The notes: generated from the letters alone by a model not told the origin. Positions 45,474-52,524 are shown, counted from the stretch's first letter. The stretch: 64,000 nucleotides of DNA from Escherichia coli (GCF_003018235.1 NZ_CP027437.1), one strand, 5' to 3'. Numbers and translations are program-made.

Positions 45474-46088
45474 CTATCGAAAGAGTGGTTTAACCGCGAC
45501 AGGAATTAACAGTTGTGATTGCCATTGCGCCAGCGTTAAGCGAGCCAGTTCACCCAGTGCACGGTAGAAAGGGTGTTCTGCTTTTTCGATAAAAACGTCA
45601 AGAAAACGTGTTGACCACGGAAAAAGGTGCCATGCCAGCAATTCTTCGCATTCTGTCTGGCGACCATTCTCCGCCAACCACGCAGCCATCAACAGCAGTG
45701 AACCAAAATGATCTTCCGGTTCGTTTTGCTGCATTTCAAACTGAATGCCTTTCTCGCGCATCCACTGACGAAGTGCCAATGTTGAATCGCCAAACAGCAC
45801 AGATTCGCGATCCAGCCAGACCGACCCCCACGGCGGTGATGGCAGAGCCCACGGACCGACAAACAAACGCTGCCAGGCCTGGGCGCGAGTCTCTTCACTC
45901 TGTGCCTGAAAAGCCGTCACCAGCGGCGCTAATGACGCTTCTGGTAGAGGCCACTGAGTTTCCCAGCCGTCACGGGTGAGTACCGCAACCAGGGGGGCGG
46001 CTTCCGCACTCTCTGGAGCGTAATAAAACAGCGCGCCCAACACGCGCGCCGCGACAGAAAAATTATCTTGCTGTGAAAAATGGGTCAT
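45474..46088 (-). CDS. dmsD: Tat proofreading chaperone DmsD
   Basis: ORF trimmed to MTHFSQQDNFSVAARVLGALFYYAPES (204 aa). Confidence 0.85.
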   Translation of the reverse strand: MTHFSQQDNFSVAARVLGALFYYAPESAEAAPLVAVLTRDGWETQWPLPEASLAPLVTAFQAQSEETRAQAWQRLFVGPWALPSPPWGSVWLDRESVLFGDSTLALRQWMREKGIQFEMQQNEPEDHFGSLLLMAAWLAENGRQTECEELLAWHLFPWSTRFLDVFIEKAEHPFYRALGELARLTLAQWQSQLLIPVAVKPLFR

Positions 46089-46130
46089 TCCTAACATCCT
46101 GAAATGTGCGGGTTGCCCCGCACCAATTTG

Positions 46131-46985
46131 TTAACCTGCAATAGCCATTCCTACCGTCATGTGCAGGCCATAAAAGAGCACACGCCCGATCATCTCACCG
46201 CCAAGTATGAGGATTAGCCCCAGAACAAGTCCGGCAACGTGAGGTTCACGGCGACGAATGAGCGGACAAAGCCAGCATCCTAGACCTGTGCATAACAATA
46301 CCACACGCCAGACCTGTAAGGAGGCGTAATCTGGTACCAGTGCGCTGGCTTGTTGTACGGATGAGTGAATAGACGCCAGAGACAAACCTTGCAGCACAAT
46401 CACCCCGGCACAAGCGATCAGCGCCAGAACGCTAATGATGGCAAATGGTGTGGTATTAAATGTAACGCGGGCTGCCCGCAGAATTGCAGCAGCAAGTATT
46501 GGACCGCTCAATAATACTGTCAGGAAGAAAGCCAGCGTAGTGTAACCGTTATGCCAGGTTGGCACAGTGTCGATTTGATACACGCCGGTCATCATCCAGA
46601 CGAAAATGACGCCGAGCGCCATGCTGACAAGTAACCAGAGTTTCCCCAACGCTTGCGGCATTTTACCGATGATCGCCACCAGCCACCATAATCCGCCAAC
46701 GGCAAAAAATATTGAACCGGCAGCAATCTCGTTACTCAGACCAGAAGCTCCGATTCGATTCAGCGAGTTAAACGCCCGCAGTGGCGATCCCAGGTGCATG
46801 ACAGAGGCAATAAACCCGATGCCCATCAACAGCCAGAGGAAAAACATGCCACGAACAATGTGCTGACGGTCTGCGTCATTTTTGGCGGCGAACCAGCCAA
46901 TTCCGCTAACAATCAGCGCGCCTACTACGCATTGACCCAATACGGTAAAGATAACCAGTGGCCATTCATGCCATCCATTTCCCAT
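46131..46985 (-). CDS. ynfH: DmsC-type membrane anchor subunit of the YnfEFGH oxidoreductase
   Basis: ORF 46131..47225 trimmed to MGNGWHEWPLVIFTVLGQ (284 aa); reverse-complement ATG at 46983-46985. Confidence 0.85.
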   Translation of the reverse strand: MGNGWHEWPLVIFTVLGQCVVGALIVSGIGWFAAKNDADRQHIVRGMFFLWLLMGIGFIASVMHLGSPLRAFNSLNRIGASGLSNEIAAGSIFFAVGGLWWLVAIIGKMPQALGKLWLLVSMALGVIFVWMMTGVYQIDTVPTWHNGYTTLAFFLTVLLSGPILAAAILRAARVTFNTTPFAIISVLALIACAGVIVLQGLSLASIHSSVQQASALVPDYASLQVWRVVLLCTGLGCWLCPLIRRREPHVAGLVLGLILILGGEMIGRVLFYGLHMTVGMAIAG

Positions 46986-46986
46986 T

Positions 46987-47604
46987 TTACACTTCCTCCG
47001 GATTAGCCAGATAACCAGTGGTATCGCCGGTCGGGCGGCTGTTGGCGTTAGGTTTGATAACGATATTGGGTTTTGTGAAATGCGCGCGCGGCAGTGGCGC
47101 GACGGCAGCCAGAGTGCCGTGCTTCTGGCGCAGCTCTTCAATTGGACCGAACTCAAGTGCACGCAGCGGGCAGGATTCGACGCATATGGGTTGTTTCCCC
47201 TCGGCGACGCGCGAATAACAACCATCGCACTTCGTCATGTGCCCTTTTTCAGCATTGTACTGTGGCGCGCCGTACGGACAAGCCATGTGGCAGTAGCGGC
47301 AGCCGATACAAACATCTTCATCAACCACCACAAAGCCATCTTCACGCTTATGCATTGCGCCGCTGGGGCAGACTTTTGTACATGCGGGGTCATCGCAATG
47401 GTTACAGGAGATGGAGAGATAATAAGCGAACACGTTCTGGTGCCAGACGCCATTATCTTCCTGCCAGTCGCCGCCAGCATATTCATAAATACGGCGGAAA
47501 CTGACTTCCGGGCCAAGATCTTTAAAATCTTTGCACGCCAGTTCGCAGGTTTTACAGCCAGTACAGCGGCTGGAATCGATAAAAAATCCATATTGTGTGG
47601 TCAT
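46987..47604 (-). CDS. ynfG: DmsB-type 4x[4Fe-4S] electron-transfer subunit
   Basis: 205-aa ORF with four Cys clusters (CxxCxxCxxxC). Confidence 0.9.
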   Translation of the reverse strand: MTTQYGFFIDSSRCTGCKTCELACKDFKDLGPEVSFRRIYEYAGGDWQEDNGVWHQNVFAYYLSISCNHCDDPACTKVCPSGAMHKREDGFVVVDEDVCIGCRYCHMACPYGAPQYNAEKGHMTKCDGCYSRVAEGKQPICVESCPLRALEFGPIEELRQKHGTLAAVAPLPRAHFTKPNIVIKPNANSRPTGDTTGYLANPEEV

Positions 47605-47614
47605 GGGCTACTCC

Positions 47615-50041
47615 TTAAACCTTTTCGATCTGGACAAGATTGCTGTGCGACGGGTTTCCCTTTGCCAGCGGTGAAGGGCGGTGAGAGGTCAGAATATTGA
47701 TACTGCCGCCGTGATCGACCCGGTCACCAAACATATCCGCTTTAAGCCACGCACCTTGCCCGATGGCGGTAACGCCAGGCAGAATACGCGGAGTCACTTT
47801 TGCGGCAATCAGCATTTCTCCATTATTGTTAAATACCCGCACGGTATCGCCATGACGGATACCGCGTGCCTGAGCATCAATAGGGTTTATCCACACCTCT
47901 TGTGGGCAGGCCTGCTGTAACACATCAATATTGCCGTAGCTGGAGTGGGTACGCGCTTTGTAGTGGAAGCCCGTTAGCTGCAGTGGATAGGTTTTCCGCA
48001 GGGGATCGTCCCAGCCATCAAAACCTGGGGTATACGCAGGAAGGGGATGAATAATTTCATCTTTTTTCAATTCCCAGGTATCCGCAATCGTCGCCAGTCG
48101 TTCAGAATAAATTTCGATTTTCCCCGAAGGTGTTTTCAACGGGTTTGCCTGTGGATCTTCACGGAATGCGCGGAAAGCGACGTAGTGTTCTTCCGGGCAT
48201 TTTTTCTTAAAGATCCCGGTCGTTTTCATCTCCTCGTAGTCGGGCATCTCAGGGTTACGTTCCTTCGTTTTCGCATGGAGATATTTGATCCATTCGTGCT
48301 GACTGCGGCCTTCAGTAAAGGTTTGATAAACGTCTGGTCCTAAGCGTTTGGCGACTTCACTCAGCATCCAGTAGATGGGTTTGCGTTCAAATTTTGCTGA
48401 GGTTGCGGGTTGGGCGAGGATCACATAGCCCATATTCCCGGCAGATTCGTGAGAGATAAGGTCTTCTTGCTCTGTTGGCATCAGGTCGGGCAACAGGATA
48501 TCGCAATACTTAGCCGAGGCAGTCATGAAGTGGTCAATGCCAACAATCATCTCGCACTTGCTGTCATCCTGAAGCACCTCATGGGTGTGATTGATGTCGC
48601 CATGTTGATTGATCAATGTGTTACTGGCGTAGCACCATAAAAACTTGATGGGGACATCCAGTTTTTCTTTTCCACGAACACCATCACGGGTCGCGGTCAT
48701 TTCCGTACCGTGGTCGATGGCATCTGTCCATGTAAAGACGGAAATCTGCGTTTTAACAGGATTCTCAAGCATCGGGAACCATTCTACCCCCAGATCCCAG
48801 CTACCTTCGCGTACACCTGAGTTGCCGCCGTTTATGCCGACGTTACCGGTGAGAACGGAAAGCATGGCAATAGCGCGGGACGTTTGTTCGCCGTTGGAGT
48901 GTCGTTGTGGCCCCCAACCCTGACAAATATAAGCAGGTTTTGCTGAACCGATCTCTCGTGCCAACTGGATAATTTTTTCTGCCGGGATGCTGGTGATTTT
49001 TGCTGCCCATTCCGGCGTTTTAGCTATGCCGTCAGGCCCTTCGCCCAGAATATAGGCTTTATAATGCGCGTTACGTGGTGCGTTGGCGGGCAGCGTTTTT
49101 TCATCGTAACCAACACAATATTTGTCGAGAAATGGCTGATCGACCATGTTTTCAGTAATCAGTACCCAGGCAATCGCACAGGCCAGTGCGCCATCGGTGC
49201 CTGGGCGAATTGGCAGCCATTCATCTTCACGCCCGGCAGCAGTGTCGTTATAACGTGGATCGATGACGATCATGCGTGCGTTTGAACGTTCTCGGGCTTG
49301 CTCGACGTAGTAAGTGACACCACCGCCGCTCATCCGGGTTTCTGCCGGGTTATTTCCGAACATAACGACCAGTTTCGTATTGGCTATATCATCCGGGCTG
49401 TTGCCATCATTGGCACCGAACATATAACTCATTGCGGCACTGATTTGAGCGGTACTGTAGCTGCCATAGCGACTGAGAAAACCACCGCAAGAGTTCATCA
49501 GACGGTACGGGACGTTCGAGTTGGTGATGTTTCCGCCATCTACGCCTGTTCCGTACAGGACATGTACAGCCTCATTGCCGTATTCTTTCAGGATCCGCCG
49601 AAGATTATCACTGATGGTATCCAGGGCTTCATCCCAACTTATCCGTTCAAATTTACCTTCACCGCGCTTGCCGACGCGCTTCATGGGATATTTCAACCTA
49701 TCAGGATGATTCATCCGTCGGCGGATAGAGCGCCCGCGTAAACACGCCCGAACCTGATGATTACCGTAGACGTCGTCACCTGTCGTATCAGACTCCACCC
49801 AGTACACGGTGTCATCTTTCACATGCAAACGTAACAGACAGCGGCTCCCGCAGTTAACGGTGCAGGAACTCCAGACCGCTTTCTCTTCTACCGGTGCCTC
49901 TGCCGCTCGGACCATTTGGGAAAATGGCAGAGTGAAAGCACTGCTTGCCAGCGCAAGACTGCCAAGTGCGGAGGTTTTCATCAGACTTCTACGGCTGATT
50001 TCAGCCTTCATGAGCGCCTCTGTGGTATGGATTTTCATCAT
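47615..50041 (-). CDS. ynfF: Tat-exported molybdopterin oxidoreductase (DmsA paralog, selenate reductase-associated) YnfF
   Basis: 808-aa ORF with twin-arginine signal (SRRSLMKTSALGSLALAS) and Mo-bisMGD catalytic domain. Confidence 0.9.
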   Translation of the reverse strand: MMKIHTTEALMKAEISRRSLMKTSALGSLALASSAFTLPFSQMVRAAEAPVEEKAVWSSCTVNCGSRCLLRLHVKDDTVYWVESDTTGDDVYGNHQVRACLRGRSIRRRMNHPDRLKYPMKRVGKRGEGKFERISWDEALDTISDNLRRILKEYGNEAVHVLYGTGVDGGNITNSNVPYRLMNSCGGFLSRYGSYSTAQISAAMSYMFGANDGNSPDDIANTKLVVMFGNNPAETRMSGGGVTYYVEQARERSNARMIVIDPRYNDTAAGREDEWLPIRPGTDGALACAIAWVLITENMVDQPFLDKYCVGYDEKTLPANAPRNAHYKAYILGEGPDGIAKTPEWAAKITSIPAEKIIQLAREIGSAKPAYICQGWGPQRHSNGEQTSRAIAMLSVLTGNVGINGGNSGVREGSWDLGVEWFPMLENPVKTQISVFTWTDAIDHGTEMTATRDGVRGKEKLDVPIKFLWCYASNTLINQHGDINHTHEVLQDDSKCEMIVGIDHFMTASAKYCDILLPDLMPTEQEDLISHESAGNMGYVILAQPATSAKFERKPIYWMLSEVAKRLGPDVYQTFTEGRSQHEWIKYLHAKTKERNPEMPDYEEMKTTGIFKKKCPEEHYVAFRAFREDPQANPLKTPSGKIEIYSERLATIADTWELKKDEIIHPLPAYTPGFDGWDDPLRKTYPLQLTGFHYKARTHSSYGNIDVLQQACPQEVWINPIDAQARGIRHGDTVRVFNNNGEMLIAAKVTPRILPGVTAIGQGAWLKADMFGDRVDHGGSINILTSHRPSPLAKGNPSHSNLVQIEKV

Positions 50042-50098
50042 TACTCACTTATTGCTTTTCAAACAAAATGTCATGTCAGAATTTATGGTTGTAGTGGG

Positions 50099-52524
50099 TT
50101 ATATTTTTTCGATCTCGACCAGATTAGTGTGCTGCGGGTTTCCCTTCGCCAGTGGTGAAGGGCGCAGAGTGGTTAGCGTATTCACACAGCCGCCATGGTC
50201 GATTTTATCGCCAGACATATTGGCCTCGTGCCAGGCTCCCTGGCCCATAGCGCTAACCCCAGGGAGAATGCGTGGTGTCACTTTGGCTGGTAGCCGAACT
50301 TCGCCACGATGGTTATACACCCGCACCATATCGCCGTTGGCAATCCCACGTTTCTGTGCGTCTATAGGGTTGATCCACACCTCCTGACGGCAGGCAGCCT
50401 TCAGGACATCAATGTTGCCGTAGGTCGAGTGAGTACGGGATTTGTAATGGAAACCGAACAGTTGCAGTGGAAAGGTACTACGTTCAGGGGAGTCCCAGCC
50501 TTCAAAGGTTGAGGCATAAACCGGCAGTGGGCTTATCACTTCATCTTTTTCCAGTTCCCAGGTACGGGCAATTTCCGCCAGCTTGCTGGAATAAATTTCA
50601 ATCTTACCGGAAGGCGTTTTAAGTGGATTTGCCTCGGGGTCGTCACGAAATGCTTTGTAGGCGACAAAATGACCATTGGGATCTTTACGCTTATAGATAC
50701 CCATTTTTTTCAGTTCGTCGTAAGACGGTAACGCCGGATCTTTGGCAAGCATTTTGGCGTACAGATGTTGTAACCATTGTTCCTGCGTGCGACCTTCTGT
50801 GAACTTTTGATAGACGTCAGGTCCAAGACGTTTCGCGACCTCACTCAGGATCCAGTAAATCGGTTTGCGTTCGAATTTTTCGCTGGTGACTGGCTGAAGG
50901 AAAATGAGATATCCCATGTTACCGGCGTAGTCGTTAGGAATAATATCTTCCTGCTCAACGGTCATCAGGTCTGGCAGCAGAATGTCGGCATATTTTGCCG
51001 ATGAGGTCATAAAGTTTTCGATGACCACAATCATTTCGCATTTCGATTCGTCCTGCAGAATTTCATGCGTTTTGTTGATGTCAGAATGCTGATTAACGAG
51101 GGTATTTCCCGCATAGTTCCAGATGAACTTAATGGGCACATCCAGTTTATCTTTGCCCCGGACACCGTCGCGGATTGCCGTCATTTGCGGGCCATGATCG
51201 ATAGCATCTGTCCAGCTGAAGCAGGAGATTGACGTTTTGACCGGATTATCCAGCACCGGTAGGCGTTCTATGGTAATGGTATAGGTCGATTCACGCGCGC
51301 CACTATTCCCGCCGCTGATGCCGACATTGCCCGTCAGAATAGGCAACATCGCAATAGCACGTGCAGTCAGCTCGCCGTTTGCCTGGCGTTGCGGTCCCCA
51401 GCCCTGGCAGATATAAGCGGGTTTTGCTGTGCCAATTTCACGCGCCAGTTTGATGATACGGTCCACCGGGATACCGGTAATTTGCGAAGCCCACTGCGGC
51501 GTTTTCGCTGTTTTATCGTCACCTTCACCAAGAATATAGGCTTTATAGTGACCATTTTTTGGTGCATCTGCGGGTAAGGTTTTTTCGTCATAGCCGACGC
51601 AGTATTTATCGAGAAAAGGTTGATCAACGAGATTTTCGTTAATCAATACCCAGGCAATACCCGCAACCAGCGCGGCATCGGTGCCCGGGCGAATAGGTTG
51701 CCATTCGTCTTCACGACCAGCAGCTGTATCGGTATATCGCGGATCGATAACAATCATTTTGCGTTCGATTTCTCGCGCGCTTTTTCAAGAAGATAAGTGA
51801 TGCCACCGCCGCTCATGCGGGTTTCTGCCGGGTTGTTACCAAACATCACGACCAGCTTGCTGTTTTCAATATCCGTGGTGCTGTTGCCATCATTACTGCC
51901 GTAGGTGTAGGGCATGGCACAGGAAATTTGCGCGGTGCTGTAGGAGCCATACTGGTTGAGTGAACCGCCGTAGCAGTTCATCAGGCGTTTGACCGCCGAG
52001 GCGGATGGCGAAGAGCGGGTCATATTGCCGCCAACGATCCCTGAAGAGTACTGAATATATACAGCCTCATTGCCATATTGTTCGACGGTTTTTTTCAGGC
52101 TACTGGCGATAGTATCCAGGGCTTCATCCCAGCTAATCCGTTCGAATTTGCCTTCGCCGCGTTTGCCCACGCGTTTCATTGGGTAATTCAAGCGATCGGG
52201 ATGATTAATACGCCGACGGATGGAGCGACCGCGCAAACAGGCACGTACTTGATGATTGCCATACTCGTCGTTGCCGGTGTTGTCAGTTTCCACCCAGGTC
52301 ACTTCATTATCTTTAACATGCAGACGAAGTGCACAGCGGCTACCACAGTTGACGGAACAGGCACCACAGAGCACTTTCTCGCTGGCCTGTTGTACCGCTG
52401 CCGCTGCACTGCGCAGGGTGAACGGTAAAGAAAAACCGCCTGCAGCCAGCGCCAGAGAACCTATCGCGGTAGATTTAACGAGTGTTCTGCGGCTGATGCC
52501 CACCATTTGTTCATTTTTGGACAT
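50099..52524 (-). pseudogene. ynfE: Tat-exported molybdopterin oxidoreductase YnfE (ynfF paralog), split by a -1 frameshift
   Basis: ORFs 51754..52524 (256 aa, Tat signal SRRTLVKSTAIGSLALAA) and 50099..51757 (552 aa) join as ...EKSNAK|MIVIDPRY...; the break is an A4 run on the coding strand where A5 would keep the frame. Confidence 0.8.

Follow-up and report, generated by a model that had tools for sequence, protein, structure and literature searches.

A tandem ynfE-ynfF pair of Escherichia coli as an apparently old, nearly inert direct repeat with a separate frameshift in ynfE

A 64,000-nt stretch of Escherichia coli DNA (GCF_003018235.1, NZ_CP027437.1; referred to below, at its full length, as the window) contains at positions 47615 to 52524 two adjacent genes, ynfF and ynfE, which lie head-to-tail within the ynfEFGH-dmsD operon and form a direct repeat with a period of ~2484 nt. 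The original prediction, made from the sequence of the window, described them as adjacent paralogues in the same orientation that make up a ~2.4-kb direct repeat. The list of open reading frames (ORFs) confirms the tandem paralogues, with both genes, their coordinates and their shared orientation as predicted; both lie on the minus strand. The pair consists of the following features:

47615-50038, minus strand: ynfF, intact, 807 amino acids (ORF list; RefSeq annotation of E. coli loci with 99.3 to 99.4% identity; NCBIfam NF041884)
50039-50098, minus strand: ynfE-ynfF intergenic spacer of 60 nt, the junction of both repeat units (sequence)
50099-52524, minus strand: ynfE, upstream copy of the pair, inactive owing to a deletion of 1 nt (aligned with the intact ynfE of loci L001 and L002; NCBIfam NF041885)
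51754-52524, minus strand: N-terminal ORF of ynfE, 256 amino acids, with the twin-arginine translocation (Tat) signal, the FS0 cysteine motif and the first part of the molybdopterin domain, ending in TGA
50099-51757, minus strand: C-terminal ORF of ynfE, 552 amino acids, from the native Met257 codon
51757-51760, minus strand: frameshift site, a run of four A residues (A4; A5 in nearly all E. coli) (alignment to intact ynfE)

The mechanical ORF of ynfF, the downstream copy, spans 47615-50041 (808 amino acids), with an ATG one codon earlier than the RefSeq-style start at 50038. Its product passes the NCBIfam model NF041884 (selenate_YnfF) outright, with 1774.5 bits against a cut-off of 1650, and scores 1286 bits against TIGR02166 (cut-off 777.7). 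The two ynfE fragments have their best matches in NF041885, where they occupy the contiguous profile positions 2-253 and 254-805 (510.8 and 1249.3 bits, respectively). Their sum of 1760 bits exceeds the cut-off of 1675, and each fragment alone falls below it, as is expected of a pseudogene. Both translations contain a Tat signal and the cysteine motif of the FS0 [4Fe-4S] cluster (C-x2-C-x3-C), which read GISRRTLVKS ... CSVNCGSRC in YnfE and EISRRSLMKT ... CTVNCGSRC in YnfF, and the Pfam domains PF04879, PF00384, and PF01568 are on record for identical products. YnfE and YnfF are predicted to be Tat-exported catalytic subunits with a molybdenum-bis(pyranopterin guanine dinucleotide) cofactor, selenate/tellurate reductase isoenzymes and paralogues of DmsA. 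The selenate and tellurate reductase activity is known from the genetics of K-12 and Salmonella (PMC12724226, PMC5203670), the two isoenzymes have been published as redundant (PMC12724226), and the paralogy of ynfE, ynfF, and dmsA has been described since 2003 (Lubitz and Weiner, as cited in PMC5203670). DmsA, of the DmsABC enzyme, is the third paralogue; it belongs to the same family (TIGR02166, dmsA_ynfE), has the same FS0 cysteine motif, and shares with YnfE and YnfF the Tat signal recognised by DmsD (PMC5203670). It differs in forming a separate clade, in its 65 to 67% protein identity, and in being encoded elsewhere in the genome, outside the tandem repeat.

The repeat finder returned direct-repeat blocks that lie in register, with spacings of 2484, 2483, and 2495 nt and an ungapped identity of 71 to 77%. 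In a global MAFFT alignment of ynfE with ynfF, 1679 of 2411 aligned positions are identical (69.6%; 5 indels), the blastn match is 70.9% identical over 2289 nt (E = 0, 1076 bits), and the proteins are 70.5% identical once ynfE is repaired. Megablast gave no match between the two copies, so that the repeat was detected only by short-word blastn and the repeat finder, and blastn found no third copy of it in the window. The identity of roughly 75% suggested earlier for the surroundings of the frameshift is correct locally (75%; 49277-49411 versus 51760-51894), whereas gene-wide it is 69.6 to 70.9%. By codon position, identity is 79%, 83%, and 47% (first, second, and third, respectively), and by the method of Nei and Gojobori (NG86) there are 0.21 nonsynonymous substitutions per nonsynonymous site (dN) and 2.12 synonymous ones per synonymous site (dS), the latter value being saturated. 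Judged by these figures, the similarity of ynfE and ynfF lies far beyond chance, but the repeat is old. Its longest exact identity is a single short segment:

49617-49636 (ynfF copy) and 52112-52131 (ynfE copy), no strand assigned: 20 nt, GTATCCAGGGCTTCATCCCA (exact-match comparison)

Only 3 exact runs of at least 17 nt exist between the paralogues, and ynfE and ynfF have no 21-mer in common. When codon columns were shuffled, the mean longest identical run was 20.2 ± 3.8 nt against the 20 nt observed (P = 0.56). The original prediction had named low identity with no extended identical segments as evidence that would speak against it; the latter half of this describes the pair well, while the repeat itself stays confirmed.

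To judge the age of the duplication, one genome per species was scanned (56 loci), and the family members recovered were placed in a neighbour-joining tree. The tree resolves YnfE, YnfF, and DmsA into clades of their own, and those of YnfE and YnfF each hold Escherichia, Salmonella, Citrobacter amalonaticus, and Pseudocitrobacter, in agreement with the 71% identity published for the YnfE and YnfF of Salmonella (PMC5203670). On this tree, the tandem duplication is older than the divergence of these four genera. The nucleotide identity of the paralogues is 0.68 to 0.70 in every genome and equal across genomes (0.69 for E. coli ynfE versus Salmonella ynfF). In the quartet site patterns of E. coli and Salmonella, 260 sites group the genes by orthology, 65 group them by genome, and 68 fall into the control class; with Citrobacter, these classes hold 285, 49, and 49 sites. 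An excess of by-genome patterns is seen in no 150-nt window. Diagnostic sites (734) were compared in nine ynfE/ynfF pairs from E. coli; in none of the alleles does a run of paralogue-state sites exceed two, and the same analysis of diagnostic-site runs finds no hybrid segment in the ynfE or ynfF of the window.

A naive matching of strain polymorphisms to the base of the other paralogue proved uninformative, as any variant “matches” where the majority bases agree, and it was replaced by outgroup-polarised sites and the diagnostic-site run analysis. At the polarised sites, the derived base equals the paralogue base in 13 of 22 cases in ynfE and 4 of 9 in ynfF; these sites lie spread out across more than 1 kb, with hundreds of unconverted differences between them, and can be explained by the constraints of two-fold-degenerate codons rather than as tracts. 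Nowhere in this material were paralogues more alike within a genome than orthologues, and no conversion tract was seen. Within the sample tested, the sequences thus bear no apparent trace of gene conversion, ancient or recent. The claim that the repeat is a substrate for gene conversion is not supported, given the separate clades, the by-genome quartet patterns at the level of the control, the absence of tracts, and the chance-level length of the identical runs. The rrn operons and the tufA/tufB genes are kilobase-sized repeated genes of E. coli that are near-identical and homogenised by conversion. By contrast, ynfE and ynfF are 30% diverged, their synonymous sites are saturated, and conversion between them is undetectable.

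The minimal efficient processing segment (MEPS) of E. coli is 23 to 90 bp of uninterrupted identity (PMC3758752), more than the longest run found here, and mismatch repair further lowers exchange between diverged sequences (PMC3758752, PMC8918686). Because of its ~70% identity and the lack of any identical stretch longer than 20 nt, the pair would now be a very poor substrate for homologous recombination. Collapse of the repeat was sought in 5426 complete RefSeq E. coli genomes with a query made by joining the 2.2-kb flanks of each side, to which only flanks brought together give a single full-length match. The ynfE-ynfF junction is intact in 5289 of these genomes, and 15 genomes gave a full-length match to the joined flanks. 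In 10 of the 5426, exactly 2427 nt with one in-frame ynfE'-'ynfF gene lie between ynfD and ynfG. Four of the ten were checked by sequence (L005 = L072, L006 = L073), and the remaining six (H120-H125) were attributed to the ECONIH4 allele by their identical span, bit score, and annotation. Mapping of diagnostic sites reveals two independent breakpoints, each with a clean switch from ynfE to ynfF at a patch of identity of 10 to 14 nt:

49338-49351 (ynfF) with partner 51821-51834 (ynfE), minus strand: crossover patch of 14 nt, AACCCGGCAGAAAC (JCC-EE 7 / FELIX_MS533 chimera)
48888-48895 (ynfF) with partner 51372-51379 (ynfE), minus strand: crossover patch of ~10 nt, AACGGCGA(AC) (ECONIH4 / 0H / CAVP776 chimera)

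The former is found in the K-12-like strains JCC-EE 7 and FELIX_MS533, which have identical alleles (WP_256683566.1; L005, 2201-4627) with no exceptions among 759 diagnostic sites; YnfE residues 1 to ~230 are joined to YnfF. The latter (WP_104457354.1), in which YnfE residues 1 to ~385 are joined to YnfF, is found in ECONIH4 (L006, 2201-4627), six “0H” isolates (0H15-0H26), and CAVP776; it is present on 68 public contigs (NCBI, ENA, Logan) and therefore represents a real circulating lineage rather than an assembly artefact.

A single gene also occupies the interval in a ynfD-X-ynfG-ynfH-dmsD arrangement in Citrobacter youngae (L015, 3778-6213), Citrobacter sp. Cu233 (L016, 3962-6397), and Citrobacter sp. 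wls619 (L014). Its first ~180 nt, which encode the signal peptide (~60 codons), are ynfE-like (72 to 88%, versus 45 to 49% to ynfF), and the remainder is ynfF-like (about 80 to 87%), so that the gene of the C. youngae group is an old, fixed in-register fusion. In-register fusions are thus present in populations and rare in them. Unequal recombination at this pair is rare but real, with two events in the 5426 E. coli genomes and one fixed in Citrobacter. The proposal that the repeat is a substrate for unequal recombination accordingly stands insofar as hybrids exist; their rate is very low, and the longest identity is below the MEPS. We infer that the hybrids arose by short-homology or homeologous recombination or by replication slippage. 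Relative to WP_104457354.1, WP_256683566.1, and the C. youngae gene, which derive from the same tandem pair by in-register crossover, the window keeps both copies, the ancestral arrangement, and these natural hybrids show a possible future of its repeat.

Other arrangements of the locus were also seen. CPE35, fusion-like at first, has an out-of-register deletion of 1.17 kb that leaves two partial pseudogenes, AZ 191 a frameshifted gene rearranged in several pieces, and FDAARGOS_1285 a truncation; all three were rejected as homologous crossovers. Strains 536, F11, MS 200-1, and many others (H131-H155) share a deletion of ynfE, ynfF, ynfG, and part of ynfH, likewise no in-register crossover, with 67% of the joined-flank query covered over a span of 2932 nt; most of the 137 complete genomes without the ynfE-ynfF junction are of this type. 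The junction query itself hit 5291 places in the 5289 records, at most 2 per genome, with one place located on plasmid DNA. Where the junction occurs twice, the cause may be a duplication of the region or a triplication arising as the reciprocal product. In Citrobacter sp. HRGM_0066 (L050) only a ynfF-type gene is present, and in Enterobacter asburiae (L018) only a ynfE-type gene. In Kluyvera cryocrescens (L037, 1-7920), and also in L040, a dmsA-like gene with its own G- and H-like genes directly precedes a ynfF-like gene that has another G/H set; here the whole three-gene module, not the catalytic gene alone, appears to be tandemly duplicated.

In the ynfE of the window, an A5 run has become shorter by one A (GCAAAAATG to GCAAAATG, window versus intact ynfE). 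The paralogous site of ynfF reads GCACGCATGATC and has no A run, so the lesion cannot come from ynfF. The deletion creates a TGA: the upstream ORF ends in ...SNAK-TGA, the downstream ORF starts at a native Met (MIVIDPRY), and the two overlap in ATGA (51754-51760). The 256 and 552 residues together make up exactly the repaired 808-residue protein, with no residue lost. A sequence search of the Protein Data Bank found no solved structure of DmsA, YnfE, or YnfF on which to place the split at residues 256/257. The gene also has three lineage-private substitutions, V52L and W53C (52366-52371) and L276Q (51698-51700), all on the minus strand. The former two adjoin the FS0 cysteine motif, and Trp53 is invariant in 46 of 46 YnfE, YnfF, and DmsA relatives; the position of L276Q is always hydrophobic (L, I, or V) in relatives. 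Private changes are nonsynonymous to synonymous in a ratio of 3:1 in ynfE and 0:1 in ynfF. This pattern of relaxed constraint, with the frameshift, marks ynfE as what appears to be a genuine, decaying, lineage-specific pseudogene.

The exact split products of 256 and 552 residues occur on 20 to 23 public contigs (NCBI, Logan), including a 5.01-Mb NCBI chromosome and short-read assemblies, and the mutation therefore marks a real lineage. Among the 5426 complete genomes, only one or two have the A4 allele, one of them being strain LR-48. As the LR-48 background is only 98.1% identical over 12 kb, its allele is probably independent in origin or an error in that assembly. A programmed frameshift or deliberately split gene was rejected in view of this rarity, and the orthologues recovered from other genera are all single ORFs; the one exception in that comparison, Escherichia sp. 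MOD1-EC7003, is broken at another position. Different ynfE lesions were seen elsewhere: a change of frame near residues 220-236 in Escherichia sp. MOD1-EC7003 (L009, 1525-3937), an A7→A6 frameshift at gene position ~1816 in EC556 (L002, 3200-5625), and a premature stop that leaves 764 and 39 amino acids in CFSAN018748 (L069, 514-2940). Some of these may be homopolymer sequencing errors; as a group, they fit the published redundancy of the isoenzymes (PMC12724226).

The repeat had also been thought to be a place where short-read assemblies mis-join and to bear on the frameshift; neither idea is borne out. Because the copies have no common 21-mer, de Bruijn assemblers at the usual k cannot join them, and reads at 70% identity will not cross-map between ynfE and ynfF. 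A short-read contig from Logan (SRR21507360; 57.5 kb) extends from ynfD through the split ynfE into ynfF and is 99.985% identical to the window over 6771 nt (1 mismatch, 0 gaps), with the same frameshift. All 23 of the 23 contigs with the 256-residue ORF are at least 20 kb long. The lesion itself removes 1 nt from an A5 run, which has no counterpart in ynfF, and it is recovered on the contigs listed above.

The rest of the operon lies downstream of the pair, at 45474-47604:

46987-47604, minus strand: ynfG
46131-46985, minus strand: ynfH
45474-46088, minus strand: dmsD

The pair is thus accompanied by genes for the Fe-S subunit YnfG, the membrane anchor YnfH, and the chaperone DmsD, in the collinear order ynfD-ynfE-ynfF-ynfG-ynfH-dmsD-clcB. 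The whole region (clcB-dmsD-ynfH-ynfG-ynfF-ynfE-ynfD-ynfC-speG-ynfB-ynfA-rspA) is collinear with annotated E. coli chromosomes at 99.3 to 99.4% identity. The ynfEFGH-dmsD operon of E. coli K-12 (Lubitz and Weiner 2003, Guymer et al. 2009, and Fujita et al. 2021, as cited in PMC5203670, PMC12096835, and PMC12724226) is the same locus, with the same gene order, orientation, and flanks (ynfABCD, clcB); the window is 98 to 99.4% identical to RefSeq E. coli and departs from the K-12 operon in ynfE by the A5→A4 frameshift and the three private nonsynonymous changes. For positions 20000-55800, the best identity to any of the 5426 complete genomes is 99.1 to 99.4%, and the window differs from each of these genomes by 0.6 to 0.9% or more. 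In the draft genome of Citrobacter amalonaticus S646, the YnfG match comes in overlapping pieces (L012, 6447-7326), residues 1-167 and then 54-205 at 76% identity, which suggests an internal duplication or a rearranged ynfG.

We consider it highly probable that ynfE and ynfF are an ancient duplicate, ~70% alike and close to inert as a repeat, in which a separate one-base lesion has struck ynfE. A tandem duplication would have preceded the divergence of Escherichia, Salmonella, Citrobacter, and Pseudocitrobacter, after which the two genes would have evolved independently under purifying selection; the repeat would now be a very poor recombination substrate and no obstacle to assembly. Its only detectable instability would be the rare collapse to a single in-frame ynfE'-'ynfF hybrid, and ynfE in this genome would have been inactivated separately, by one A lost from the A5 run, and be decaying next to an intact ynfF. 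Several points weigh against this account. The in-register chimeras, found in two lineages of E. coli and one of Citrobacter, mean that the repeat is not completely inert, and the RecA dependence or independence of their formation is inferred. The conversion tests covered nine E. coli pairs and two outgroup genera, so that short tracts are possible in the other ~5400 genomes. In Salmonella, most selenate reductase activity comes from YnfE, not YnfF (PMC5203670), and the loss of ynfE could, given that activity, have a phenotype here.

The pair might instead be an active substrate for recombination and gene conversion, with exchanges that mould the sequences of both genes and could be the origin of the ynfE lesion or the route by which it was passed on. 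The shared orientation, the 2.4-kb length, the 60-nt spacer, and the in-register hybrids in 10 of 5426 E. coli genomes and the C. youngae group are what such a substrate would predict, but the hybrids amount to ~0.2% of genomes and only two events, no identical run is longer than chance or reaches the MEPS, and the A run of the frameshift is absent from ynfF and so was not copied from it. With neither concerted evolution nor conversion tracts, the conversion part of this proposal is already largely refuted, and we regard it as a whole as improbable. We hold it to be very improbable that the split ynfE is still functional, its two pieces produced by translational coupling across the ATGA overlap and assembled into a two-piece enzyme. 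Complete coverage of the 808 residues, the overlap itself, the persistence of the allele in a lineage of at least 20 assemblies, and its recurrence on the 98.1%-identical background of LR-48 would suit such an enzyme; opposed to it are W53C at an invariant Trp beside the FS0 motif, L276Q at an always hydrophobic residue, the 3:1 versus 0:1 ratio of private changes, which indicates relaxed constraint, and the presence of the allele in only one or two complete genomes. It also counts against a two-piece enzyme that we know of no split at position 256/257 in the DmsA/YnfE/YnfF family. That the frameshift or the arrangement is a repeat-caused assembly or sequencing artefact, through mis-joined or collapsed paralogues, seems extremely improbable. 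Changes of homopolymer length are a classic type of sequencing error, and other complete genomes with different homopolymer frameshifts in ynfE, such as the A7→A6 of EC556, could be errors; against this, the exact products recur on 20 to 23 contigs, an independent, gap-free short-read contig spans both paralogues over 6.8 kb at 99.985%, the paralogues have no common 21-mer, and ynfE has private damaging substitutions as well.

An old pair with a separate ynfE lesion has consequences for annotation: ynfE and ynfF can be treated as two well-separated genes, whose reads can be mapped and assembled safely at k ≥ 21, and the frameshift in ynfE is to be annotated as a genuine lineage-specific pseudogene, not a repeat-induced artefact. 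Because of the published redundancy of the isoenzymes, the intact ynfF probably supplies the catalytic subunit in this genome, and for the same reason either copy would be losable by frameshift, deletion, or fusion. The pair was already known, and nothing in the window departs from the published picture; what is new, on a small scale, is that in-frame ynfE'-'ynfF hybrids occur naturally and that ynfE is split here without the loss of a residue. More tentatively, and with rather more doubt than confidence, the pair may be viewed as a slow natural shuffling cassette whose hybrids are functional and selected rather than neutral deletions, with a working split ynfE as a weaker addition. If that were so, the pair would collapse repeatedly in register to in-frame hybrid reductases despite 30% divergence, as in the three cases seen. 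The natural hybrids are a minor curiosity, usable to map the part of YnfE or YnfF that sets activity or targeting by Tat and DmsD, and the locus is a classic case of duplicated genes no longer subject to concerted evolution.

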